Assembly (NCBI GenBank): GCA_029237825.1
Contig: JAQZBQ010000003.1
Span: forward strand, 166,001 to 230,000
DNA from: Bacteroidota bacterium
GTDB taxonomy: Bacteria; Bacteroidota; Bacteroidia; B-17B0; Aurantibacillaceae
Direction of reading: 5' to 3'
DNA: 64,000 nt
Shown: in pieces, positions 501-64,000 of the stretch
Numbering within the stretch: the stretch's first letter is position 1
Layout of the letters: each line of letters begins with the position of its first letter
The notes under the pieces: model-generated
Seen by the model: only the letters and a program-made list of their open reading frames with translations
What the model was told of the DNA's origin: nothing
The model's database searches: none
Program-made: the position numbers and the translations under genes

Positions 501-1919
501 ATGAAGACAAAATTTATCCTATTTCTATTCATTTTTACTTTATCACTCATTTGTAATTCTCAGCCTTACTTCCAGAAAACCTATAATATGCCTCTAGACC
601 AGGAAGGTCAGGATGTATTACCAACGCCAGATGGCGGTTATATGGTTGTAGGGTATACTAACACAAGCATCCTGTATGATTGTGATCTAATGATCTTTAA
701 AACGGATGCCGCAGGCAATCAGCTATGGACAAAAACATACGGTGGTAACAAACCTGATTTTCCTTACCATATGCTTGCGACAAACGACGGTAATTATTTC
801 CTGGTGGGATATTCTCAGAGCTACGGAGGCGGCGACCTTGACATCTTATTACAAAAATTCGATCCTAACGGTAACCAAATATGGTTGAAAACCTATGGTG
901 GCTGGGGCAATGATTTTGCCCGTGATGTCATTGCAACCAACGATGGAAATTACATTATTATTGGATCATCAAACAGCCAGAGTACAACCGGGCAAAATGC
1001 TAATCTAATTAAAATTGACCCTGCTGGAAATGTTATCTGGAACAAAACATATGGTGGTCCTGCAAATGATCATGGCTGCAACATTAAACAGTGTTCAGAC
1101 GGAGGCTATATCATGCTTGGACAAACCTTCAGTTATGGTGTTGGTAATGGAGATGCCTGGTTGGTTAAACTTGATGCAAACGGTGACACCACTTGGACTA
1201 AAACCTTTGGCGGTGCCCAAAATGATGAAGGTATATCATTAACTGTAAATAATGATGATAGTTTCACTTTTATTATTCGTGACAGTAGTAACGTGGGACA
1301 GGATATAGACACTCGTATAATTAAGACGTCTCCTACCGGAAATATTATCTGGGACAAGACTTATGGCGGAAATAAGAAAGATACACCAAAAATGATTCAA
1401 AAAACTTCTGATGGAGGATACGTTGTTGCTGCCATTAGCCGGAGTTTTGGATGGATTAACCCCGATATGTGGATCTTAAAATTAAATAGTTCCGGGGATA
1501 CTACCTGGACAAGGCATTACGGAGGCAGTAATAACGAACATTGCTATACCGTAAGGGAGCTGTCCGATGGAAGTTATATTGCAGTTGGAAAAACTACAAG
1601 TTATGGCCCAACAATGGATCCCATTCTTTTAAAGATTAACTCAAACGGGAAAGTAACAGTGGGAGTGGAAGAACTGGCTCACAATTCATCGGTACTTTTA
1701 TACCCTAACCCCAACTCTGGACACATAAATATCGATTTAACAAGCTTTAAAGCAAAACGGATTACAGTCACAAACATACTTGGCGAAGAGGTATTTCGTA
1801 AAGACATTGACAATGAAACACAATTGGCTATCACACTTGATAATAGTACCGAAGGTGTGTATTTCTTAAAAAGTGAATCGGAAACTCAATCTGTAATTAA
1901 TAAATTCATTATAAACTAA
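501..1919 (+). CDS. secreted repeat (beta-propeller-like) protein with T9SS C-terminal sorting domain
   Basis: Track ORF 414..1919 trimmed to ATG 501 (MKTKFILFLFIFTLSLICNSQ, a signal peptide). Seven ~52-aa repeats each carry W-x-K-T-Y/F-G-G...D-G-x-Y...G. The C-terminus LYPNPNSGHINIDL...GVYFLK...INKFIIN fits the Por/T9SS sorting-domain pattern. Confidence 0.8.
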   Translation: MKTKFILFLFIFTLSLICNSQPYFQKTYNMPLDQEGQDVLPTPDGGYMVVGYTNTSILYDCDLMIFKTDAAGNQLWTKTYGGNKPDFPYHMLATNDGNYFLVGYSQSYGGGDLDILLQKFDPNGNQIWLKTYGGWGNDFARDVIATNDGNYIIIGSSNSQSTTGQNANLIKIDPAGNVIWNKTYGGPANDHGCNIKQCSDGGYIMLGQTFSYGVGNGDAWLVKLDANGDTTWTKTFGGAQNDEGISLTVNNDDSFTFIIRDSSNVGQDIDTRIIKTSPTGNIIWDKTYGGNKKDTPKMIQKTSDGGYVVAAISRSFGWINPDMWILKLNSSGDTTWTRHYGGSNNEHCYTVRELSDGSYIAVGKTTSYGPTMDPILLKINSNGKVTVGVEELAHNSSVLLYPNPNSGHINIDLTSFKAKRITVTNILGEEVFRKDIDNETQLAITLDNSTEGVYFLKSESETQSVINKFIIN

Positions 1920-25223: not shown

Positions 25224-26288
25224 ATGAAAAAACTCTACTTTATTTTTTTTACCGCTTTCCTTTCAGGTCAAATCGACGCGCAAACTTATACGTTAACGTC
25301 ATCCAATCATCAACCAATCGTGGGAGATTCCTATGGTGCATTAACTGTTGATACAAATTCTACGCCTTTGCCAATGCATATTTCGGGAGCGGGAGTTACC
25401 TGGAGCATTACTGCTTTAACTCTTACAGATTCAATTGTTGCCTTAAATACGTTTTCAACGGCAGCTACCTATTCAAATTCGGCAAACTATGCCAACACCA
25501 ATCTCGTACAATACGATTCAACCACTACTACTTACTTTAATTCATCTACAAATATGGTTGAACTAACCGGGGTTGATGCAGGTCAATTTGATTTGAATTA
25601 CAATGCAGGCAATGCTACCATCGCTATGTATCCAATGGCTTTCGGTTTTTCTAACACAGATAACACCGTTGGAGGAGACATGAGTGTGGTAACGCCTTTT
25701 GGTCCAGCTACGGGGACTTTTACAGGAACAGTAACTACCCAGGTTGACGGCACGGGGACTTTAAACCTTAATAACATTTCGGTATTTAACAATTGTGTTC
25801 GTTTAGCGACCATGCAAAACATTCTTTTTGATTTGGCTACTCCTTTAGGTCAAATGGCTGGTATCCTAGATCAAACCACGTATAACTTTTACAACAGCTC
25901 GTCTAAATTCCCCTTGTTTTCAGTAACTTATTTCCATGTTCAGGTTCCCGATGCCGGAATAGATCAGGGACAAGCGCAGGTAACAATACTTTCTTCGGTT
26001 GCTATTGGTGTTAAAGAAAATTCTGAAAAGGAAATTCTTTTCAAAGCGTATCCAAATCCTGCAAGCGATGAAGTGCAACTACATTTTGTTATAGCAAAAA
26101 ATGAATCTTATACCTTCGAAATTGTAAATGCAATTGGTCAGGTTGTAAAAACGGTATCCATGCCAAATCTTCATATGGGAATGTATAATGAAACAATCAA
26201 TACATCAGATTTAAGGGCGGGAATATACACCATTAAAGTTACCGGAACATCTTCTCATGGTACCGAAAAACTTGTGATACAAAAATAG
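25224..26288 (+). CDS. T9SS C-terminal-domain secreted protein
   Basis: Signal peptide. The C-terminus FKAYPNPASDEVQLHF...GIYTIKV...LVIQK fits the T9SS sorting domain. Confidence 0.8.
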   Translation: MKKLYFIFFTAFLSGQIDAQTYTLTSSNHQPIVGDSYGALTVDTNSTPLPMHISGAGVTWSITALTLTDSIVALNTFSTAATYSNSANYANTNLVQYDSTTTTYFNSSTNMVELTGVDAGQFDLNYNAGNATIAMYPMAFGFSNTDNTVGGDMSVVTPFGPATGTFTGTVTTQVDGTGTLNLNNISVFNNCVRLATMQNILFDLATPLGQMAGILDQTTYNFYNSSSKFPLFSVTYFHVQVPDAGIDQGQAQVTILSSVAIGVKENSEKEILFKAYPNPASDEVQLHFVIAKNESYTFEIVNAIGQVVKTVSMPNLHMGMYNETINTSDLRAGIYTIKVTGTSSHGTEKLVIQK

Positions 26289-34029: not shown

Positions 34030-36351
34030 TTAATCTTTTTTCAAATATTTTCGGGTTGCTAACGTAAATTTTATGTCAGCATAGGAAACATTATCTCCTA
34101 GAGCCTGCTTTATAACAGAACCGGATCCTGTTTCGTGTGCGATCGCATACTTTAAAATTTTATCATAAATATCCTTCGAAACAAAGCGGGTAACAGGTAT
34201 CAAACCTAAACTCACAAAATGGGACAAATGGTTTTCTATAGTCCCCATGGTTAGGCTGCGCTCCACAGCAATCTCTTCTATGGGTTTACCCTGTTGAAAT
34301 AATTCATAAGTAATCGCCTTAGTGTCTTTTTTGCTTTTCTTTTCACTTTTTAATTTCGGAGATTTTACCTTGGATCCTGATTTATTACCTTTTTTAATCG
34401 ACCGTTCTCCTCTTTTCTCTTCAAACGCAAGTTTTTCAGTGAGTGCCTGCGTTTGCTGCACGATTTCCATTCGTTCCAACTGACTTACCTGCCGGTTTGC
34501 TGACATCTTATTTAGTTCCTTCCCATTAAGAACATGATCGATCACTAAAGAAAATTTATCCAGGAGTGTCAGCTGTTTGTAAATTAAACCTTCGAGTTCA
34601 AGCAATTCTTCAAGATATGCTTTTACTTGTTTTTCGTCTTTTATGCCTTCACTCTGCTGAAGAATGTTTTTTGACATTTCCTTCAAAACGGGATAAAAGT
34701 AATTCTTGGCTGCTGCATGCCTTTCAGCAATCAGGTTAAGAAAACCTTCCTTTCTCTCGTCAAAAATCAGCTGCAATTGATTACAGAATTTCTCTGCATG
34801 AAACCTTAACGGATCAAGTTTTGTAACCCACTCTTCGGCCGATGGTAAATTTTTTTGCTTCACAGACCGGTTTTCAGACATGGTATAACTACTTAAGTGC
34901 GTCTTGAAACTTTTAAATAACCAAACAAAATCATATGTTTTTAAAATGTACCCTTTTAAAAATAAGACCGTTTCCTGATCAATAAGCTGCTTTAATTCTT
35001 CACTTTTTGGTATGCCTTCAGAATATTCTTTTAGCGTTTTATCCTGAGAAAGAGCAGTAAACTGAAGCGGTGAAGTCAATATTAATCCATTCAAGGATTT
35101 TAACCTGGATAAAGCAACATACACTTGCCCGGGCGCAAAAGCACGATTAATATCCAAAATGGCTTTCTCAAATGTGAGACCCTGGCTTTTATGAACGGTG
35201 ATAGCCCAGGCAAGTTTTATCGGATATTGAACAAAAGTTCCAATATCCTTTTCATCCACGTCATTAGTCACCGGATTCAATTCGTACTTGATATTTCGCC
35301 ATTGATACGTTTCCAGTAAAAAGGGCTTTGATCCGTCTTTAAAATCTATTTCAATAGAATTTTCGGTTAACGTTGAAACTACACCAATTTTACCATTAAA
35401 ATACTGCTGTCTTCCACTCATGTCATTTTTAATGAACATAATTTGTGCACCAACCTTTAATTCAAGCATAGCATCAACCGGATATGCATGTTCGCTAAAA
35501 TCACCCTCTACCTGAGCATAAAAGAAAAACGATTTTCCATTAAGTTTTTGTAATGCTGTTTTGTTAATTGAATCAGCTTTAAAATTATGTGTGGTTAATG
35601 TTATAGTGTTTAAAGATGGCTTTAATTCAGCATCAGGTAGGTAATGGCGATTCAACAAATCGATGTCGCTTTGTGTGACTGTATTATTTCGAAGATTGTT
35701 TAAAAGATCAATAAAAACAGAATCAGATTGCCTGTAAATCTTATCTAATTCAATGTAAAGCGGTCTGTTATTCCTTAGTACAAGCGCATCAAAAAAATAA
35801 ATACTATTATAATAGTTGTTCATAATTCGCCATTCCTCCTCTTTTACAACAGGAGGTAATTGCATTAAATCACCAATAAACAAAACCTGAACACCACCAA
35901 AAGGTTTATGTTGTTGCCGCCGAATGCTTCTCAAAACAAAATCAATTGTATCCAGCAAATCCGCACGAAGCATACTTACTTCATCGATAACCAACAATTC
36001 TAACTCCTGCAATAACCGGCGTTTTTGTTCACGCATGTTTAAATGCTTCACCAAGGTATGAGGGGTATTAATTTTTACCTGGAAATTATCGATCCTAAAA
36101 GAACTATCAGGAATAAATAAACCAAAAGGAATTCCGAACTGTGAATGAATTGTAACACCTCCTGCATTAATAGCGGCAATGCCGGTTGGCGCGACAATAA
36201 TGGCATTCTTGTGAGTGTGATCGATAATATTCCTAAGAAATGTCGTTTTCCCGGTTCCTGCTTTACCGGTTAAAAAAACACACCGATTAGTTTGGTTGAT
36301 ACATTTTGCTGCAAGTTCTGCCGGACTAATTTCTCTTACCTCATTTTCCAT
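34030..36351 (-). CDS. pif1: Pif1/RecD-like SF1B DNA helicase with C-terminal helix-turn-helix
   Basis: Walker A GKAGTGKTT, Walker B LVIDEVSM, plus VHKSQGLTF and VALSR motifs. A Lys-rich linker and an HTH-like tail follow, as in Bacteroides Pif1-type proteins. Confidence 0.85.
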   Translation of the reverse strand: MENEVREISPAELAAKCINQTNRCVFLTGKAGTGKTTFLRNIIDHTHKNAIIVAPTGIAAINAGGVTIHSQFGIPFGLFIPDSSFRIDNFQVKINTPHTLVKHLNMREQKRRLLQELELLVIDEVSMLRADLLDTIDFVLRSIRRQQHKPFGGVQVLFIGDLMQLPPVVKEEEWRIMNNYYNSIYFFDALVLRNNRPLYIELDKIYRQSDSVFIDLLNNLRNNTVTQSDIDLLNRHYLPDAELKPSLNTITLTTHNFKADSINKTALQKLNGKSFFFYAQVEGDFSEHAYPVDAMLELKVGAQIMFIKNDMSGRQQYFNGKIGVVSTLTENSIEIDFKDGSKPFLLETYQWRNIKYELNPVTNDVDEKDIGTFVQYPIKLAWAITVHKSQGLTFEKAILDINRAFAPGQVYVALSRLKSLNGLILTSPLQFTALSQDKTLKEYSEGIPKSEELKQLIDQETVLFLKGYILKTYDFVWLFKSFKTHLSSYTMSENRSVKQKNLPSAEEWVTKLDPLRFHAEKFCNQLQLIFDERKEGFLNLIAERHAAAKNYFYPVLKEMSKNILQQSEGIKDEKQVKAYLEELLELEGLIYKQLTLLDKFSLVIDHVLNGKELNKMSANRQVSQLERMEIVQQTQALTEKLAFEEKRGERSIKKGNKSGSKVKSPKLKSEKKSKKDTKAITYELFQQGKPIEEIAVERSLTMGTIENHLSHFVSLGLIPVTRFVSKDIYDKILKYAIAHETGSGSVIKQALGDNVSYADIKFTLATRKYLKKD

Positions 36352-44000: not shown

Positions 44001-45557
44001 TTATTTTGCTGACAGAGTTATGTAAGGAATGATCATCTCCTCCAAACTTACACCACCGTGCTGGAAAGTATTTTTATAATACTGTACATAATGATTGAAG
44101 TTGTTGGGATATGCGAAAAATTTATCTTCTCTCGCAAATATATAACGCGTGCTTACATTTTGTTTTGGTAAAAACGCATCCGCCGGATTTTTGATTTCAA
44201 ACACTTCTTTTGGATTATAATCAAGTGCCCTACCCTGCTTATATCGTAAATTGGTGTTCACGCTTTTATCACCCACCACTTTGGTAGGTTCTTTAACGTG
44301 AACCGTTCCATGATCGGTTGTAATAACCATTTTAGCTCCTTTGGAGGCGATGAATTTAATCATATCAAGCAGAGGAGAATGTTCAAACCACGACACTGTA
44401 AGGCTACGGTAAGCAGGTTCATCATCTGCCAGTTCACGAATCATTTCTAATTCAGTACGAGCGTGGCTGAGCATATCTACAAAATTATATACAATCACAT
44501 TGAGCTTATTGTTCATCAAATTACTCATATTCTCAGAAAGCTTTTTACCTGCAGCAAAATTGGTGATCTTGTTATAACTGGTTTTTATATCTTTCCCTAA
44601 GCGCTTTATTTGAGCATTTAAGAAATCTTCTTCATGCATGTTCTTTCCGCCTTCATCTTCATCGTTTTTCCACCAGTCGGGATGACGTTTTTCCATTTCA
44701 CTCGGCAACAATCCTGAAAACAACGCGTTTCTGGCATATTGTGTGGCAGACGGTAAAATACTAAAAAACAATTCTTCGCTATCTACTCTGAAATAATCCT
44801 GAATAATCGGTTGGATCATTTTCCATTGGTCATATCTTAAATTATCAATAACTACTAAAAAGGTGCAGGCATTGTTATCAAAATGACTAAAAAATTTATT
44901 TTTTAATAACGTATGACTCATTGTGGGTACATTGGTACTTGATCCATTAAGCCAGCTTATGTAATTTTTCTCAATGAATTTAAAGAATTGAAGGTTTGCA
45001 TCGGCTTTCTGCATTTTTAAAACTTCAAGCATTCCCTTGTCCTGATTTTTATCTATTTCCAATTCCCAATACACAATTTTTTTGAAAACTTCCTGCCATT
45101 CCTGCCAGTTAAGATTATCGGATAACGTCATGCCGATTTCACGAAATTCTTTACGGTATTCGGTATTGGTTTTTTCTGATACCAGGCGCTTGTTATCCAG
45201 CGTTTTTTTCAATGACAAGAGTATCTGATTAGGATTAACCGGCTTAATCAGGTAATCTGCAATTTTACTACCAATTGCATCTTCCATGATATATTCTTCT
45301 TCACTCTTCGTGATCATTATAACAGGCAGATCTGATTTTAACTGTTTAATTTTCGTTAACGCCTCCAGTCCGGAAATTCCAGGCATATTTTCGTCAAGAA
45401 GCACTGCTGATAAATCATTGGTTTCTTTTACGATATCTATGGCTTCATCTCCGCTTAACGCGGTTACAATTTCATAGCCTTTACTGTTTAAAAATAAAAT
45501 GTGTGGTTTTAGCAGATCAATCTCGTCATCCGCCCAAAGAATAGTTATTTTGTCCAT
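44001..45557 (-). CDS. porX: response regulator with PglZ/alkaline-phosphatase-superfamily output domain (PorX-like)
   Basis: REC domain (ILWADDEIDLLKP..., acceptor D in VLLDENMPG) fused to a ~380-aa PglZ-type domain. At 518 aa, the architecture matches the T9SS regulator PorX. Confidence 0.75.
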   Translation of the reverse strand: MDKITILWADDEIDLLKPHILFLNSKGYEIVTALSGDEAIDIVKETNDLSAVLLDENMPGISGLEALTKIKQLKSDLPVIMITKSEEEYIMEDAIGSKIADYLIKPVNPNQILLSLKKTLDNKRLVSEKTNTEYRKEFREIGMTLSDNLNWQEWQEVFKKIVYWELEIDKNQDKGMLEVLKMQKADANLQFFKFIEKNYISWLNGSSTNVPTMSHTLLKNKFFSHFDNNACTFLVVIDNLRYDQWKMIQPIIQDYFRVDSEELFFSILPSATQYARNALFSGLLPSEMEKRHPDWWKNDEDEGGKNMHEEDFLNAQIKRLGKDIKTSYNKITNFAAGKKLSENMSNLMNNKLNVIVYNFVDMLSHARTELEMIRELADDEPAYRSLTVSWFEHSPLLDMIKFIASKGAKMVITTDHGTVHVKEPTKVVGDKSVNTNLRYKQGRALDYNPKEVFEIKNPADAFLPKQNVSTRYIFAREDKFFAYPNNFNHYVQYYKNTFQHGGVSLEEMIIPYITLSAK

Positions 45558-48499: not shown

Positions 48500-50275
48500 T
48501 TATCTATTATCCATTTCTGATTCACAGGATTTTTTTACATACGACCCGGGCGCGTTTTCCAGAATAGGATAAAATTTATTTCCGAGTTTTTTTCTGGCGG
48601 GAACCTTTTTACCGGAATGTTTTGATAAGCTCTCATAATAGGAATTCCACCAACTTCCTTCGCGATACTTCGCAGTTTTTTTCCAGGCCTCATAATTGCC
48701 TTTAAGTTCACCATCGGTCCAATAACCATATTTATTTTTTGCAGGAGGATTAATGGCGCCCATTACATGACCGGAGCCCCCAAGAATGAATTCAACGGGC
48801 CCGCTAACCATCCGTGTGGTTATAAATACTGTTGACGCTGGTGATATATAGTCTTCGGTAAACCCAATTACAAATACCGGGCAACTAATTTTGCCTATAT
48901 CAATTGGATATCCAGATACTGTTAACGCGTTTTTACGGCTTAATCCGTTTTCCAGAATTATACGGTGGATATAATATTTGTACATTTCACCGGGTAAATT
49001 GGTATTGTCGTTTGTCCAGTACAACACATCGAAAGCCGTCGGTTTTAAGCCCTTCAGGTAATTGTTTACCGCATAGTTCCAAATCAAGTCATGGGAACGA
49101 ATAAGGTTAAACGCCAGTTCCATATTATGACCGTTTAGCAAGCCATTATGCAGTAGTTCTCCCCTATCCAGTTTTTTTACCAATGCTTCATCAATTACAT
49201 TTCCCATAGGGCCAACATCTATAAAATCGATCATGGCAGCCAAAAAGGTAGCAGTATTGATGGGATCCTTATCGCCTTGGTTTTCAAGAATGGCAGCAGC
49301 AACACTCAACAAGGTACCGCCGAGGCAATAGCCAAAGGTGTTAATTTTATCAACATCAGAAATTTCTTTAGCTACCTCAATTGCTTTCAATGCACCCAAC
49401 TCCACATAATCATCGAAACTTAAATGCGAGGTTTCAGGACAAGGATTGCGCCATGAAATCATAAACACAGTAAATCCTTTATCCACTAAAAACTTAACCA
49501 GCGAATTGTGTGCCTGTAAATCGAGTATATAAAATTTATTGATCCAGGGCGGGATCATCAGTATTGGTTTTTCAAAAACGGTATCTGTAGTTGGCGAATA
49601 TTGTATAAGTTGAATAAGTTGGTTTTCAAAAATTACGGCGCCAGGCGATGTGGCTAAATTTACACCTACCTCAAAGGCTGACTCATCGGTTTGTGTAATC
49701 TGGCCTTTCTCGATGTCTTTAATCAAATTTTTAAACCCTTGAAACAGGCTTTTACCATGTGTTTCTATGGCTGTTTTCTGAACTTCCGGATTAGTAGGTA
49801 AAAAATTTGCCGGCGAAAACAGATCCATAAAATGCTGGTTGTAAAACGCCATTTTTTTACGCGCTTTATAACCAATTTCAATTTCAGAAATAATGCGTTC
49901 CGCAAGTCTTTCTGTGATCAGATAATTCTGCCGGATAAAATCAAAATATGGAATGTTCCATTCCGTTGCTGTAAAACGTTTATCATTTTTTTTTGCAATA
50001 TCCTTGAAAGTACATTCTTCATCTGGATTAATAAATACTGAATTCCATATTCTTTGTTGGCAGCCGAGGTAATCCAGCCACAAACCATACACTTTCTGCA
50101 TTTCATGTGGATTGATCGCAATTTTTGACAAAAAATTGAAATAGGTAATTGCAATGGAACGGCTGTCGTGCTGGTACCCTTTAAAGTTTTTAAAAAAATC
50201 GGCCCATAATTTTACACCGGCATTATTCATTCCGGTAACTATTTCTGTGGGATTAAACTCTGCGCTGCTTTCCAT
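48500..50275 (-). CDS. phaC: class I poly(R)-hydroxyalkanoate synthase
   Basis: Lipase-box GYCLGG and the PhaC N-terminal domain. At ~590 aa, the length is typical of class I synthases. Confidence 0.9.
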   Translation of the reverse strand: MESSAEFNPTEIVTGMNNAGVKLWADFFKNFKGYQHDSRSIAITYFNFLSKIAINPHEMQKVYGLWLDYLGCQQRIWNSVFINPDEECTFKDIAKKNDKRFTATEWNIPYFDFIRQNYLITERLAERIISEIEIGYKARKKMAFYNQHFMDLFSPANFLPTNPEVQKTAIETHGKSLFQGFKNLIKDIEKGQITQTDESAFEVGVNLATSPGAVIFENQLIQLIQYSPTTDTVFEKPILMIPPWINKFYILDLQAHNSLVKFLVDKGFTVFMISWRNPCPETSHLSFDDYVELGALKAIEVAKEISDVDKINTFGYCLGGTLLSVAAAILENQGDKDPINTATFLAAMIDFIDVGPMGNVIDEALVKKLDRGELLHNGLLNGHNMELAFNLIRSHDLIWNYAVNNYLKGLKPTAFDVLYWTNDNTNLPGEMYKYYIHRIILENGLSRKNALTVSGYPIDIGKISCPVFVIGFTEDYISPASTVFITTRMVSGPVEFILGGSGHVMGAINPPAKNKYGYWTDGELKGNYEAWKKTAKYREGSWWNSYYESLSKHSGKKVPARKKLGNKFYPILENAPGSYVKKSCESEMDNR

Positions 50276-59451: not shown

Positions 59452-60102
59452 ATGATTCATATTTTATCTGAACAGAATTCAATTTTTAACCAATATGTGG
59501 CTGAGCTGCGTGATATCAATATCCAGAAAGACAGCATGCGTTTCCGCAAAAATCTGGAACGCATTGGGGAGATCCTGAGTTATGAAATTTCAAAGACGAT
59601 GGATTACGTTAAAAGGGAAACAACAACACCACTTGGAATTGCAGAAACGAGTCATTTAGTTGAACAACCGGTAATCGCTACAATTTTAAGAGCTGGATTA
59701 CCAATGCATTTAGGTGTTTTAAATTATTTTGATAATGCCGAAAATGCTTTTATTTCTGCATACAGAAGACATCATAAAGATAATTCATTTGACATTCATG
59801 TAGAGTATGTATCAAGTCCTAACCTTGATGGAAAAACGCTCATACTTTGTGATCCTATGATTGCCACCGGAGCTTCCATTGTACTGGCATATAAAGCTAT
59901 ACTTGCGAAAGGCACTCCAAAACACGTTCATATTCTTTCGGCTATTAGCAGTAAAGAAGGAATTGATCATGTAAGAGCTACCATGCCCACAAAAGATTTT
60001 ACGATTTGGTGCGGCGCCATAGACGAAGAATTAACTGCACATTCCTACATCGTTCCTGGTTTAGGCGACGCCGGTGACTTAGCTTTTGGAGAGAAGATTT
60101 AA
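59452..60102 (+). CDS. upp: uracil phosphoribosyltransferase
   Basis: PRPP motif LILCDPMIATGAS and C-terminal YIVPGLGDAGDLAFG. Confidence 0.95.
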   Translation: MIHILSEQNSIFNQYVAELRDINIQKDSMRFRKNLERIGEILSYEISKTMDYVKRETTTPLGIAETSHLVEQPVIATILRAGLPMHLGVLNYFDNAENAFISAYRRHHKDNSFDIHVEYVSSPNLDGKTLILCDPMIATGASIVLAYKAILAKGTPKHVHILSAISSKEGIDHVRATMPTKDFTIWCGAIDEELTAHSYIVPGLGDAGDLAFGEKI

Positions 60103-60121
60103 TTTACTGTGAATCTAAATA

Positions 60122-60601
60122 ATGGATAGTACTGAGATTTTAAAGTTCATATCGGCTGCACTGGCCAATACCGTTTCGCTCTCAAAAATCGGAATTCCAA
60201 CGGTAATTGCTCTTTACAAATCTAACTATGTGATGGCTTTACTGAGCAGTTGCTTCGGTGCAATACTAGGTACTGTCGTATTTACTTACGTTTTTGCCGG
60301 GTTATTAAAATGGTGGGAACGTGTTAAAGAAGGCATGTTCACTTCCAAGCATCCAAAAAAAATATTTACCAAATTCAATAGGCGCGTCATCCGTGTTAAA
60401 AACCGTTTTGGTTTGATTGGAATTGCCATGTTGACACCAATTTTACTTTCCATACCCATTGGAGCATTTTTGGCAGAACGTTTCTACAAACATAAAGGTA
60501 AAGTAATTTTGTATTTAAGCTTAGCGTCGATTTTCTGGTGCTTCACCCTTTACTTTTCCTATCTCTACTTTTACGATAGTTTTAAATCCTGGTTAAATTA
60601 A
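60122..60601 (+). CDS. hypothetical small membrane protein
   Basis: Four hydrophobic segments. No family recognised. Its stop codon abuts the stop of the convergent gene. Confidence 0.5.
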   Translation: MDSTEILKFISAALANTVSLSKIGIPTVIALYKSNYVMALLSSCFGAILGTVVFTYVFAGLLKWWERVKEGMFTSKHPKKIFTKFNRRVIRVKNRFGLIGIAMLTPILLSIPIGAFLAERFYKHKGKVILYLSLASIFWCFTLYFSYLYFYDSFKSWLN

Positions 60602-61570
60602 TTACAATTTCAGGAATTTCAATTGCTGGAAACTTACTCCATCTTTAATAATCACACTATATACTCCGGGTTGGAAACAGGACACGTCAATAACAGTTTG
60701 ATCAGAGGATGTTTCGCTCAAAAGGACTTTTCCTAAAATCGAACATACTTCATAATTAAAAACTGACCCCGCTTTCCTCCGCAAAATTAACTTGTCTTCA
60801 GCCGGATTCGGGTATATCGATACACTTTCATTTCCCAACTCGTCCACTCCTACAGGCATTTGGTTAATCACACCCACCGCGTCAAGATCGAAACCACCAT
60901 TTCCAAATCCTGTTGGCCAGGGATCATTAATCTTATTTTTGTGTCGATCGCGACTACAGTACTGATCCTGGAGTGACCCAACAACATCCACAATTTTTAC
61001 GTGAGTAATTGCCTGTTTATTCAGTAATAAATTATCAGGGATGTCGTCTAAATCAAACGGTGTCCCAAAACCTCCCCTGTATTTACCTGCCAGATTATTA
61101 ATTTTTGTAGCGTCCGTAAGTCCAAAACTCCAGGTTTGTGTTACCGTATCACTATTGCTGGTGGCCGGGAACCTAAAAAAAGTTCCTCCGTCGCTGCTCA
61201 CCTCTACAAATGCCAGTTCGAGAAATGCATCATCAAAACCATTTTCAAACACTGCAAAATCCGGTCCAGCACCATTGATAACCGGCGTAGCAAAAGTTAA
61301 AATGGCTGAACCTCCATCGCCAAGGCAAACAACGCCTCCATAATCGGCAATGCCTATCGCAAGGGATGCGTCGCCCACGTCGGTATAACCAAGTGACGGA
61401 TTAGAAACATCCTGAAAACCCCGGTTTACGATACAACCTGTAGCCCAGGACTTAAAAGCTGAACTATCCAACGACATTGCCGTTGATCCAGGCTGACCTG
61501 TAGGTGGTGCAAATTGCGCATTCACAGTCAACTGAACTACCAAAAAGATTCTGCAAAAAACAGATTTCAT
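60602..61570 (-). CDS. T9SS C-terminal-domain secreted protein of unknown function, downstream of a cobalamin riboswitch
   Basis: Signal peptide MKSVFCRIFLVVQLTVNAQ. A ~230-aa domain carries GPDFAVFENGFDDAFLELAFVEVSSDGG. The C-terminus SIYPNPAEDKLIL...GVYSVIIKDG...LKFLKL fits the T9SS sorting domain. The ATG at 61570 lies 56 nt after the riboswitch aptamer. Confidence 0.8.
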   Translation of the reverse strand: MKSVFCRIFLVVQLTVNAQFAPPTGQPGSTAMSLDSSAFKSWATGCIVNRGFQDVSNPSLGYTDVGDASLAIGIADYGGVVCLGDGGSAILTFATPVINGAGPDFAVFENGFDDAFLELAFVEVSSDGGTFFRFPATSNSDTVTQTWSFGLTDATKINNLAGKYRGGFGTPFDLDDIPDNLLLNKQAITHVKIVDVVGSLQDQYCSRDRHKNKINDPWPTGFGNGGFDLDAVGVINQMPVGVDELGNESVSIYPNPAEDKLILRRKAGSVFNYEVCSILGKVLLSETSSDQTVIDVSCFQPGVYSVIIKDGVSFQQLKFLKL

Positions 61571-61624
61571 AAAAAAGACACAATGCCTTTATGAGTTTAT
61601 GTCCCGAACCCAAACATTGATTTA

Positions 61625-61765
61625 TTGGCAGGTCTTCTGACTTGTTCTACTATGCGCCTTCCCGATCAAATCAGTGGCGTTTTGGCATAGTACTAATTGA
61701 ACGTTACAGCTGCGGGTACAGTACCGGACTTACACCGGTTTCCCTTTCCAACAGGGGCAAAGATA
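61625..61765 (-). promoter_or_regulatory. cobalamin (adenosylcobalamin-type) riboswitch
   Basis: The minus strand contains three conserved elements. The first is GGAAAGGGAAACCGGTGTAAGTCCGGTACTGTACCCGCAGCTGTAA (61749->61704). The second is the B12-box-like GCCACTGATTTGATCGGGAAGGC (61678->61656). The third is GTCAGAAGACCTGCC (61641->61627). Their order and spacing match the conserved core of the cobalamin riboswitch class, as in the E. coli btuB leader. Recognised by eye; no covariance-model search was run. Confidence 0.85.
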
Positions 61766-61870
61766 TAAAAAAATTGAATTTCTGTAATATTTATAACTTC
61801 TGCCACAAAGTCTTAAATAACAATGGCATAATAATCGTGTATATTGCGTAACTAATATTTACGTGATCGT

Positions 61871-64000
61871 ATGATTTTCTTAAAAGATTCTGAAAAAATG
61901 CCCTTTGACCCTATGATTGACGAGGATAGTGATTTTATTCCTTTGTTAACTGCGGAAGATGAAGATAACATGCATGCCGAGAAAATTCCGGATGTACTGT
62001 CAATTTTACCGCTACGGAATACGGTGTTATTTCCAGGAGTAGTTATCCCTATTACTGTTGGCAGAGACAAGTCTATTAGTTTAATAAAAGAGGCTTATAA
62101 AGGGGATAGAACCATCGGTGTGGTTGCCCAAAAAAATGATTCCATTGAAGATCCTCAACAGGACGATTTAAACGCAGTTGGTACCGTGGCCCAGATCATT
62201 AAAATGCTGCGCATGCCGGATGGCAATACAACGGTTATTATTCAAGGAAAAAAACGTTTCAGGATAAAGGAATTTACCCAGTCTGAGCCATATTACCGTG
62301 CTAAAACTGAACGCTTTGAAGAGACACGTCCTGAGAAAAACGACGAAGAGTTTCAGGCAATTGTGTCAACGTTAAAGGATACAGCGTTATTGATCATTCA
62401 AAAATCCCAGCACATTCCTACTGAAGCGGGGTTTGCGCTTAACAATATCGAGAGCCAGAACTTCATGGTAAACTTCATATCCTCCAATATGAACGCCAGT
62501 TCGGCTGAAAAACAAAGAATGCTAGAAGTTCCCAGCTTAAAAGACCGGGCAACGATGGTATTGGCCCATCTTACCAAAGACCTGCACATGCTGGAACTGA
62601 AAAACCAGATACAGGATAAGGTTAAAGTGGATTTGGATAAACAACAACGCGATTACTTTTTGCACCAGCAAATAAAAACCATTCAGGAAGAGCTGGGGGA
62701 AAAAGGTAACGAACAGGAATTTGAAGAATTACGGGCCCGCGCGAAAACTAAAAAATGGAGTAAAGAAATTGGTGACATATTTGAAAAGCAAATGCACAAA
62801 TTGTCACGCATGAATCCAAATTCGCCTGAATTCGGCGTTCAAACCAATTACCTGGAACTTCTATTGGATTTGCCCTGGGGCGAATACACCGTTGATAATT
62901 TTGATCTGAAACACGCGGAAATGACTTTAAACCACGATCATTTTGGTTTAGAAAAAGTGAAGGAACGTATTTTGGAACACCTGGCAGTTTTAAAATTGAA
63001 GGGAGATTTAAAAGCTCCGATACTTTGCCTTTACGGTCCTCCGGGTGTGGGAAAAACCTCTCTTGGAAAAAGTATTGCCAAAGCTTTAAACAGAAAATAT
63101 GTTAGAATGGCTTTGGGCGGATTGAAAGATGAAAGCGAAATCCGCGGGCATCGGAAAACTTATATTGGCGCAATGCCAGGGCGAGTTTTACAGAATTTGA
63201 AAAAGGTGCAGTCGTCCAATCCGGTGTTTATTCTGGATGAAATTGATAAGGTAGGAAATGATTTTCATGGCGACCCTTCGTCTGCCCTATTGGAAGTATT
63301 GGACCCTGAACAAAATTCAACATTCTATGATAATTTCCTGGAAAATGATTATGACCTGAGTAAAATATTATTCATAGCTACCTGCAACAACTTATCCTCC
63401 ATACAGCCTGCTTTACGGGACAGGATGGAGATAATTGATGTAAGTGGATACACTGTTGAGGAAAAAATAGAAATTGCCAAACAACATTTGTTATCCAAGC
63501 AAATTGAAGACAATGGATTAAAGAAATCACAGCTGAAGCTTTCGGATAAGCAACTGGAATTTATCATTGAAAATTATACAGCAGAAAGTGGAGTGCGTCA
63601 TTTAGAAAAACGCATTTCAAAGATTGCCCGTTATGTTGCGGTGCATGTGGTAAAAAAAGAGCCACTTCCTAAAATTAACGAGGAGACGATCGCTAAGATT
63701 CTTGGTCCGTCACATGAAAAAGCGAAATACCAGGGAAATGATGTACCCGGTGTTGTTACAGGACTTGCGTGGACCCAGGTTGGAGGTGATATTCTATACA
63801 TTGAAACGAGCTTATCTAAAGGTAAAGGTGGTAAACTAACCCTGACAGGTAATCTGGGTGAGGTAATGAAAGAAAGTGCCACGCTTGCATTGGAATTCAT
63901 TAAAGCCCATAATGAAGAATTCAATATCGATGCTGAGGTTTTTGAAAATTATAACATCCACATTCATGTGCCGGAAGGTGCTACCCCAAAAGACGGGCCA
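61871..64000 (+). CDS. lon: ATP-dependent Lon protease (N-terminal ~710 codons; continues past window end)
   Basis: Not in the ORF track because it has no stop in the window. Hand translation gives ...IPDVLSILPLRNTVLFPGVVIPITVGRDKSISLIKEAY... (LON N-domain), and Walker A GPPGVGKTSLGKSIA near 63040. The frame is open from 61856 to 64000. The start is ATG 61871 or the in-frame ATG 61898. Confidence 0.95.
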   Translation, partial: MIFLKDSEKMPFDPMIDEDSDFIPLLTAEDEDNMHAEKIPDVLSILPLRNTVLFPGVVIPITVGRDKSISLIKEAYKGDRTIGVVAQKNDSIEDPQQDDLNAVGTVAQIIKMLRMPDGNTTVIIQGKKRFRIKEFTQSEPYYRAKTERFEETRPEKNDEEFQAIVSTLKDTALLIIQKSQHIPTEAGFALNNIESQNFMVNFISSNMNASSAEKQRMLEVPSLKDRATMVLAHLTKDLHMLELKNQIQDKVKVDLDKQQRDYFLHQQIKTIQEELGEKGNEQEFEELRARAKTKKWSKEIGDIFEKQMHKLSRMNPNSPEFGVQTNYLELLLDLPWGEYTVDNFDLKHAEMTLNHDHFGLEKVKERILEHLAVLKLKGDLKAPILCLYGPPGVGKTSLGKSIAKALNRKYVRMALGGLKDESEIRGHRKTYIGAMPGRVLQNLKKVQSSNPVFILDEIDKVGNDFHGDPSSALLEVLDPEQNSTFYDNFLENDYDLSKILFIATCNNLSSIQPALRDRMEIIDVSGYTVEEKIEIAKQHLLSKQIEDNGLKKSQLKLSDKQLEFIIENYTAESGVRHLEKRISKIARYVAVHVVKKEPLPKINEETIAKILGPSHEKAKYQGNDVPGVVTGLAWTQVGGDILYIETSLSKGKGGKLTLTGNLGEVMKESATLALEFIKAHNEEFNIDAEVFENYNIHIHVPEGATPKDGP

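Follow-up and report, generated by a model that had tools for sequence, protein, structure and literature searches.

A riboswitch-controlled predicted type IX secretion cargo with a remote BtuH-like domain: a probable cobamide-capture protein of environmental Bacteroidota

The 64,000-nucleotide stretch of DNA analysed here (the window) covers positions 166,001 to 230,000 of contig JAQZBQ010000003.1 from a Bacteroidota bacterium of the family Aurantibacillaceae (assembly GCA_029237825.1). Near its end, on the minus strand, a cobalamin riboswitch precedes a gene for a 322-residue protein (the window protein), which combines a signal peptide, a domain remotely related to the vitamin B12-binding protein BtuH and a type A sorting domain of the type IX secretion system (T9SS). 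The window protein is identical to hypothetical protein K0R26_1011 of a Bacteroidota metagenome-assembled genome (MAG). It belongs to a very large family whose genes are mostly linked to B12 riboswitches and uptake genes, and it probably captures cobamides outside the cell. The features of the locus are as follows.

61758-61765, minus strand: candidate Bacteroidota -7 promoter element, TAtcTTTG (read from the sequence)
61610-61777, minus strand: cobalamin riboswitch aptamer, RF00174 (cmscan, 87.3 bits, E 3.5e-20, full model 1-189)
61581-61619, minus strand: conserved two-tier expression-platform stem-loop, CAAUGUUU ... AAAGGCAUUG around a hairpin (RNAalifold)
60602-61570, minus strand: coding sequence of 322 amino acids with an ATG start, encoding signal peptide, BtuH-like domain and T9SS type A sorting domain
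61517-61570, minus strand: signal peptide, residues 1-18, predicted to be cleaved between VNA and QF, leaving an N-terminal Gln (inspection)
60851-61516, minus strand: BtuH-like domain, residues 19 to about 240 (AlphaFold2 model, hhalign, shuffle controls)
61187-61342, minus strand: core motif, residues 77-128, GVVCLGDGGSAILTFATPVINGAGPDFAVFENGFDDAFLELAFVEVSSDG, aligned with BtuH1 residues 65-116 (HMMER, hhalign)
60605-60817, minus strand: T9SS type A C-terminal sorting domain, residues 252-322 (PF18962, TIGR04183)
61571-64000 and 59452-60601: flanking parts of a syntenic block (comparison of loci)

The stop codon of the gene (60602-60604) touches the stop of a convergent open reading frame for a 159-residue membrane protein (60122-60601, plus strand), and the upstream neighbour, lon, is divergent; the gene is thus monocistronic. 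Control of lon by the riboswitch was considered and rejected, as lon is divergent and lies on the opposite strand. Several species-level MAGs (loci L004-L015) show synteny over this block of divergent lon, riboswitch and gene, convergent 159-residue gene and upp. The convergent membrane protein matched no Pfam family. A preliminary description of this DNA, made from the sequence, had proposed a 322-residue frame with a signal peptide, a domain that could not be assigned and a T9SS sorting domain, placed behind a B12 riboswitch and ending against a convergent stop, with no co-transcribed transporter. The open reading frames and their coordinates, the Pfam and NCBIfam scans and the Rfam match on the same strand agree with it. 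Its further statement that the window holds no TonB-dependent receptor and no btuFCD genes is borne out as far as the scans reached. We found no match to TonB-dependent receptor, FecCD or periplasmic binding protein families in 20 of the window's open reading frames of at least 299 residues (Pfam); smaller frames were scanned in part, so that for btuF and btuD this negative is not exhaustive. Searches of the whole window with BtuB-like, DUF4465, DUF5074, DUF4430, BtuH, BtuJ and BtuK queries (tblastn, E<=0.01) returned nothing except sorting-domain similarity.

The riboswitch match compares with a gathering score of 31.5 bits for RF00174, and the aptamer ends 39 nt before the ATG of the gene, on the same strand. 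The consensus of the -7 element of Bacteroides promoters is TAnnTTTG, and this pattern occurs at the equivalent place in the orthologous leaders (alignment A2). We infer that TAtcTTTG is the -7 box of the promoter; no -33 element was identified beside it. At its 5' end the Rfam match probably extends into this promoter; the aptamer proper is likely to start downstream of 61758, by a few bases, and the P1 pairing that Rfam places at 61758-61777 is doubtful. RNAalifold predicted 17 base pairs in nine orthologous leaders (A8), 14 of them within the stem-loop, and five pairs show compensatory changes. A U-tract (61571-61576) follows the stem-loop and touches the AUG; the element may end transcription or mask the start site. 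Such riboswitches repress expression in the presence of B12 in reporter assays in Bacteroides thetaiotaomicron (PMC12751083), and by analogy with these reporters the window gene would be repressed by B12, as an OFF switch.

The N-terminus of the window protein, MKSVFCRIFLVVQLTVNA followed by QF, shows on inspection a basic n-region, a hydrophobic h-region and a site of the signal peptidase I (SPI) type. Residues Q19 and F20 are invariant in 35 close orthologues (alignment A1). No conserved lipobox Cys is found at the N-terminus of these orthologues, nor the signal peptidase II lipoprotein signal of the BtuH type. At the other end, PF18962 matches residues 252-312 with 40.3 bits (cutoff 27, E 4.1e-10) and TIGR04183 matches with 35.8 bits (cutoff 23, E 5.7e-9), and the profile matches of this region in the PDB are sorting domains throughout (8glk, 8glj, 5jvk). 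As far as sequence signals can tell, the combination of a Sec signal with an invariant mature Gln and a type A sorting domain indicates export by the T9SS.

The domain between these two signals is invisible to the family databases, residues 19-245 having no Pfam or NCBIfam match at E<=1. Membership of DUF4465 (the BtuJ family, PF14717) or DUF5074 (the BtuG family, PF16819) was considered and rejected, as the window protein matches neither at E<=1. Neither a single-sequence phmmer search nor a 38-sequence profile retrieved anything from the PDB for the N-terminal domain. A 96-sequence profile (HMMER) gave a sole match other than sorting domains, to residues 428-472 of 8blw_B (E 0.003-0.007). 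This match falls in the C-terminal extension of BtuG1, about 250 residues long, which is homologous to BtuH2 (PMC10404256). When the 45-residue BtuG1 fragment was used alone as a protein query, no homologues were found; a two-row self-alignment query made from it recovered locus 1 of B. thetaiotaomicron from gut metagenome contigs (L085). The comparators were BtuH1 (BT_1488), BtuH2 (BT_1956) and the H-domain of BtuG1 (BT_1490) of B. thetaiotaomicron, with structures 7BIZ and 8BLW. BtuH1 aligns with the BtuH2 structure 7BIZ at E 2e-61, has no Pfam family and gives NCBIfam matches at chance level only.

Profile-profile comparison connects the two families. With hhalign, the family and a 46-sequence BtuH alignment match over about 50 columns with a probability of 92-94% and E 1e-7 to 5e-7. 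This true comparison scored 55.9, whereas the best of 100 column-shuffled BtuH profiles reached 21.5 (E 0.029) and a reversed profile gave E 0.2. The core reads VVSLGDGG-A-LTF--PI-NG-G-DFAVFEN-F-D-FLELAFVEVSSDG on the family side and YVSLGAFGGYITVK-P--I-N--GYDFGI-GN-F-GSSEPGIVWVS-D on the BtuH side, the motif VSLGxGG...I.N..G.DF.I..N.F....E...V.VS.D being common to both. When the core was removed, the best local alignments of the remaining parts were still collinear with it, if weak: FAPPxGQ against YxPAPGQF in the N-terminal parts (P 0.005) and PFDLDDI...L...ITHVKI against NxFDLDDAVD...L..IxFVKV in the C-terminal parts (P 0.016). The shared motifs there are PAPGQ and FDLDD...L..I.FVKV, respectively. 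Identity with BtuH amounts to about 30% and is confined to the core, which explains why HMMER and BLAST do not connect the family with BtuH.

A domain-only AlphaFold2 model built from 96 diverse sequences is mostly beta, with a mean predicted local distance difference test score (pLDDT) of 96.1 and a predicted template modelling (TM) score of 0.92; it replaced an unusable full-length run with 35 close orthologues (pLDDT 57). The top PDB match of this model in Foldseek is again 8blw_B, the BtuB1-BtuG1 complex of B. thetaiotaomicron (E 1.6e-3, TM-score 0.26, root-mean-square deviation 19.7). Residues were mapped onto BtuH2 by means of the BtuH1-7BIZ alignment and a published residue list (PMC13616437). 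BtuH2 N399, F401 and E406 align with N110, F112 and E118 of the window protein. In BtuH2, N399 and E406 are ligands of a Ca/Na site that bridges to the phosphate of B12, and F401 is an aromatic corrin contact (PMC13616437). The three residues of the window protein that align with this metal and nucleotide-loop site do not vary among the 35 close orthologues (A1); in the 96-sequence alignment (A3) E118 is likewise without variation, while N110 and F112 are kept in at least 90% of the sequences. Invariant acidic and Asn residues in the 35 orthologues include D85, E109, N110, E118, E123, D195, D216, D228 and D230. Elsewhere the two domains diverge. A BtuH insert of about 90 residues that carries Y475, H476 and Y510 is replaced in the family by a shorter, unrelated segment, and the family has its own invariant motifs, NDPWPT and GGFDLDAVG. 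We take the domain to be homologous to the BtuH scaffold but diverged from it, with its ligand-facing region remodelled, and not an orthodox BtuH.

The gene is not an oddity of one genome, as one might have taken it to be from the preliminary description. An exhaustive phmmer search, in which residues 18-245 were compared with the representatives of 1.84 billion clusters, delineated a family of 1,796 clusters (50% identity) at E<=1e-3, with 716 at E<=1e-30. The best 120 relatives in a word-indexed search are about 326 residues long and 56-64% identical to the window protein, and are annotated merely as 'T9SS type A sorting domain-containing protein' or 'hypothetical'. Most members consist of the domain followed by a sorting domain; some, 500-2,200 residues long, have the domain at their end. 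One member of 565 residues (P0121) has two tandem copies of the domain and then one T9SS sorting domain. With one genome per species, at least 578 family loci were confirmed, and genomic context was analysed for the best 80 of these, all from distinct species. Represented among them are Chitinophagales, Sphingobacteriales, Flavobacteriales (including the isolate Mesonia ostreae), non-Bacteroides Bacteroidales, Saprospiraceae and a MAG labelled Chlorobiota.

Riboswitches were detected in these loci with an nhmmer profile made from ten Rfam-confirmed aptamers and backed by Rfam, which found the aptamer of L030 that nhmmer had missed. Of the 80 loci, 61 contain a cobalamin riboswitch, and in every case it has the same orientation as the family gene. 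In 19 loci, among them those of all close orthologues of the window gene, it lies directly upstream at a distance of 40-140 nt; 16 such loci could be resolved, and 13 of them have a convergent gene downstream. About 28 loci (such as L016) show a longer order: riboswitch, TonB-dependent receptor of about 610-670 residues, DUF4465 protein with sorting domain, family gene and DUF5074 beta-propeller. In about 12 others a gene for a DUF4465 or DUF4430 protein with sorting domain stands between the riboswitch and the family gene, with DUF5074 and/or btuB downstream. Altogether, the family gene sits inside btuB/DUF4465/DUF5074 operons in about half of the loci, and btuB occurs in the same string of genes in about 40. 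DUF4465 is the BtuJ family, whose members are proven high-affinity B12 binders (PMC13616437), and BtuG1 of B. thetaiotaomicron matches DUF5074. The family operon order mirrors BtuJ2-BtuH2-(BtuL)-BtuG2 of B. thetaiotaomicron, the latter order being inferred from the gene numbers BT_1957 to BT_1954. Moreover, the family domain occurs in fusion proteins together with DUF4465 and a sorting domain (P0127).

Two further kinds of association deserve mention. In seven loci of Bacteroidales MAGs (L027, L028, L060, L062, L063, L070 and L074), a protein with DUF4430 and a T9SS sorting domain is the first gene after the riboswitch, the family gene coming next. DUF4430 is the transcobalamin-like beta-domain family, and this protein may be another T9SS-delivered B12 binder. 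The 561-residue protein P0152 consists of the family domain, a PEP-CTERM motif and a DUF4465 domain. It points to members outside Bacteroidota that use another surface-sorting signal; alternatively, gene calling may have joined two neighbouring genes.

No riboswitch was detected in the remaining 19 loci. For eight of them the upstream sequence is too short or truncated (L014, L034, L045, L046, L052, L059, L067 and L068), and in three BtuB-like and/or BtuG-like (DUF5074) genes adjoin the family gene (L073, L078 and L082). In the complete genome of Bacteroidetes bacterium UKL13-3 (L071, 5974-9288), the family gene is followed by cobT (DBI_PRT), cobS and a cobC-like histidine-phosphatase gene. 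A 4HBT thioesterase gene precedes the family gene in L071, and another follows it in L027. In three of the other loci (L019, L020 and L021, from Chitinophaga-like MAGs), the flanking genes encode an M17 aminopeptidase and a 1,185-residue protein with a caspase (C14) domain; these family members may represent a sub-branch with constitutive expression or another role.

The most probable role of the window protein is to capture cobamides outside the cell and deliver them to a BtuG/BtuB transporter whose genes would lie elsewhere in the genome, a reading to which we give a probability of roughly two in three. At low intracellular cobamide the riboswitch leader would permit expression, and the pre-protein would cross the inner membrane via Sec and be cleaved after A18. 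The type A sorting domain would then route the protein through the T9SS, to be released or attached to the cell surface. Outside the cell it would capture cobamides, the putatively retained acidic metal site probably engaging the nucleotide-loop phosphate as in BtuH2, and would pass them to the outer-membrane transporter. The preliminary description had proposed a T9SS-delivered corrinoid-capture factor, and the riboswitch in 61 of 80 loci, the operons, the DUF4465 fusions and the BtuH homology speak for it. It had suggested comparing the unassigned domain with the families of B12 loci and asking whether orthologues keep the riboswitch or adjoin btuB; the former comparison yielded a remote BtuH homologue with no DUF4465 match, and the latter the 61 riboswitches and the roughly 40 gene strings with btuB. 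It had also named a confident match to an unrelated enzyme family as an outcome that would count against its idea, and there is none in Pfam, NCBIfam or the PDB.

Several observations weigh against a role in cobamide capture. The partner transporter is hypothetical, since neither btuB nor btuG was found in the window. The expression platform is not a clear terminator: the single-sequence fold of the leader is no better than that of shuffled sequences (z 0.28), and a simple terminator scan found no terminator on the strand of the gene. Seven of the 19 riboswitch-less loci show no B12 link within 6 kb (L019-21, L047, L075, L081 and L064, the last with a generic TonB-dependent receptor upstream). 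Similarity to BtuH has statistical support over only about 50 of about 225 residues. The support from Foldseek is weak, galactose-binding-like jelly rolls (CBM32, F5/8 type C, APC10) scoring about equally with TM-scores of 0.3-0.5, and the high-resolution BtuH2 structure 7BIZ lies outside the top 50 matches. The family has nothing equivalent to the BtuH segment that bears Y475, H476 and Y510, which contact the corrin, and the metal ligand D522. Of the BtuH corrin contacts Q333, H476, Y510, F334, F401, Y475 and W577, only F401 is conserved (as F112), and Q333 in part (as the GQ of FAPPxGQ). Finally, S582 and E584, the other residues of the Ca/Na site of BtuH2, are not reliably alignable; the match of D228 and D230 (GEVSTEV against GGFDLDAV) was made by eye only, and hhalign gave no signal between GGFDLDAVG and the BtuH segment GEVSTEV.

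A rival reading is that the protein is an extracellular adaptor or scaffold for B12 uptake that does not itself bind corrinoids, for instance by docking BtuJ-like (DUF4465) binders to BtuG/BtuB or by opening the lid of BtuG. Genomic linkage to B12 does not require binding, most BtuH corrin-contact residues are without counterpart, and the family gene usually adjoins, or is fused to, a gene for a DUF4465 binder; BtuK2 of B. thetaiotaomicron, a non-binding paralogue of a binder, offers a precedent (PMC13616437). We nevertheless consider an adaptor unlikely, because different species keep the gene as a stand-alone unit under riboswitch control, without a partner gene close by, and because the residues aligned with the phosphate-holding metal site of BtuH are invariant. 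The many invariant Asp, Glu and Asn residues could alternatively form a catalytic metal site, the protein being an extracellular enzyme that acts on corrinoid sources by freeing cobamides from carrier proteins or by remodelling them. The salvage genes cobT-cobS-cobC beside the family gene in L071 would suit such an activity. However, no hydrolase or other enzyme family was matched in Pfam, NCBIfam or the PDB, the structural neighbours found by Foldseek are binding modules, and the sole homologue found, BtuH, is a binder whose equivalent acidic residues hold structural or ligand-bridging Ca and Na; an enzyme is therefore very unlikely in our view.

The same Foldseek neighbours invite a reading that has nothing to do with B12, in which the domain would be a secreted Ca-dependent carbohydrate-binding or adhesin module with a galactose-binding-like jelly roll and control by the riboswitch would be incidental or indirect. 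Domains of the CBM32, F5/8 type C and APC10 types are indeed retrieved with probabilities of 0.9-0.99, and a minority of family loci lack a B12 context. Yet the TM-scores of these matches are merely 0.3-0.5, DUF4465 fusions exist, and the profile homology to BtuH is specific. Such a module would also leave unexplained why, over many lineages, more than 80% of the informative loci are linked to riboswitches or B12 genes, and we give this explanation hardly any credence.

If the window protein does capture cobamides, it would do so by a route that differs from the one described in gut species. The accessory B12 proteins of B. thetaiotaomicron (BtuG, BtuH, BtuJ, BtuK and BtuL) are all lipoproteins (PMC13616437, PMC12751083, PMC8941943, PMC10404256). 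Like BtuH, members of the family are predicted here from their signals to be extracytoplasmic and are encoded in riboswitch-controlled loci beside BtuJ-like and BtuG-like genes. Unlike BtuH, which has a lipoprotein signal, they combine an SPI signal with a T9SS type A sorting domain, occur mainly in environmental and non-Bacteroides Bacteroidota and form, in the clade of the window gene, a stand-alone riboswitch-controlled unit. The published census of BtuH was made by BLASTX within gut genomes (PMC8941943), and a census of this kind would not reach the present family. BtuJ, a B12-binding jelly-roll protein, is likewise an accessory extracellular protein of B12 loci, and the BtuJ-like DUF4465 proteins of the related loci also bear T9SS sorting domains, directly upstream of the family protein or fused to it. 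The window protein itself, with no DUF4465 match at E<=1, represents a family other than BtuJ. Many environmental Bacteroidota thus probably export B12-scavenging proteins through the T9SS instead of tethering them with lipid anchors.

The nearest parallel in architecture is HBP35 of Porphyromonas gingivalis, a hemin-binding T9SS type A cargo with signal peptide, ligand-binding domain and C-terminal sorting domain. In both cases the T9SS would place a cofactor scavenger on or beyond the cell surface, whereas ligand and fold differ. We know of no riboswitch control for nutrient-binding T9SS cargo such as HBP35, and our literature searches found no description of T9SS-delivered B12 accessory proteins, including in the paper on DUF4465. 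The remark of the preliminary description that it was aware of no characterised route of this kind thus holds for the T9SS form and not for accessory B12 proteins as such, which are known as the lipoproteins BtuH, BtuJ and BtuG. What is new here is the different export, pocket region and taxa and, in this clade, the riboswitch unit of its own, a BtuH-like kind of protein being already known.

Scavenging of cobamides shapes competition in soils, waters and guts, and the mechanism of extracellular capture is known almost entirely from the lipoproteins BtuG, BtuH, BtuJ and BtuK of B. thetaiotaomicron. The present family, large and unannotated in Flavobacteriales, Chitinophagales, Sphingobacteriales, non-Bacteroides Bacteroidales and beyond, brings together the B12 regulon, remote kinship with BtuH and the T9SS route. 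If our interpretation is correct, the BtuH fold family reaches far outside the gut, a role in vitamin nutrition is added to the functions of the T9SS, and a second, divergent solution of the corrinoid pocket on the same scaffold is open to study; thousands of 'hypothetical T9SS sorting domain-containing proteins' would also gain an annotation. A bolder picture, which we hold tentatively and regard as rather unlikely in its entirety, is that the whole extracellular cobamide-capture tier of environmental Bacteroidota (BtuH-like, BtuJ-like/DUF4465 and DUF4430 proteins) is exported by the T9SS and not as lipoproteins. The stand-alone member would then be a released, diffusible 'corrinophore' that sequesters cobamides at a distance, in a pocket unlike that of BtuH, and returns them to BtuBG. 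Such a molecule would be the protein counterpart, for vitamin B12, of siderophores and hemophores.

A wider relationship may extend to the LIC_13355 lipoproteins of Leptospira (NF033170), proteins of unknown function. Sub-threshold matches to this model (E 2e-4 to 0.055) were obtained for family members in L016 (6258-7235) and L083 (6001-6975) and for the window protein. The similarity covers the same core and the C-terminal half (E 2e-4 to 3e-4), although it reaches about 20 bits against a curated cutoff of 120. This suggests that the family and LIC_13355 belong to a wider superfamily.

Elsewhere in the window, two more proteins carry a T9SS type A sorting domain, their cargo parts being otherwise unannotated: one of 472 residues (501-1919, plus strand), with a faint hint of a DUF5122 beta-propeller, and one of 354 residues (25224-26288, plus strand). 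Judged by these sorting domains, they show that the host uses T9SS cargo widely. Unrelated to the B12 gene are a PIF1-like helicase with an HTH_40 domain (34030-36351, minus strand), a response regulator with a PglZ domain (44001-45557, minus strand) and a PhaC-type polyhydroxyalkanoate synthase (48500-50275, minus strand).

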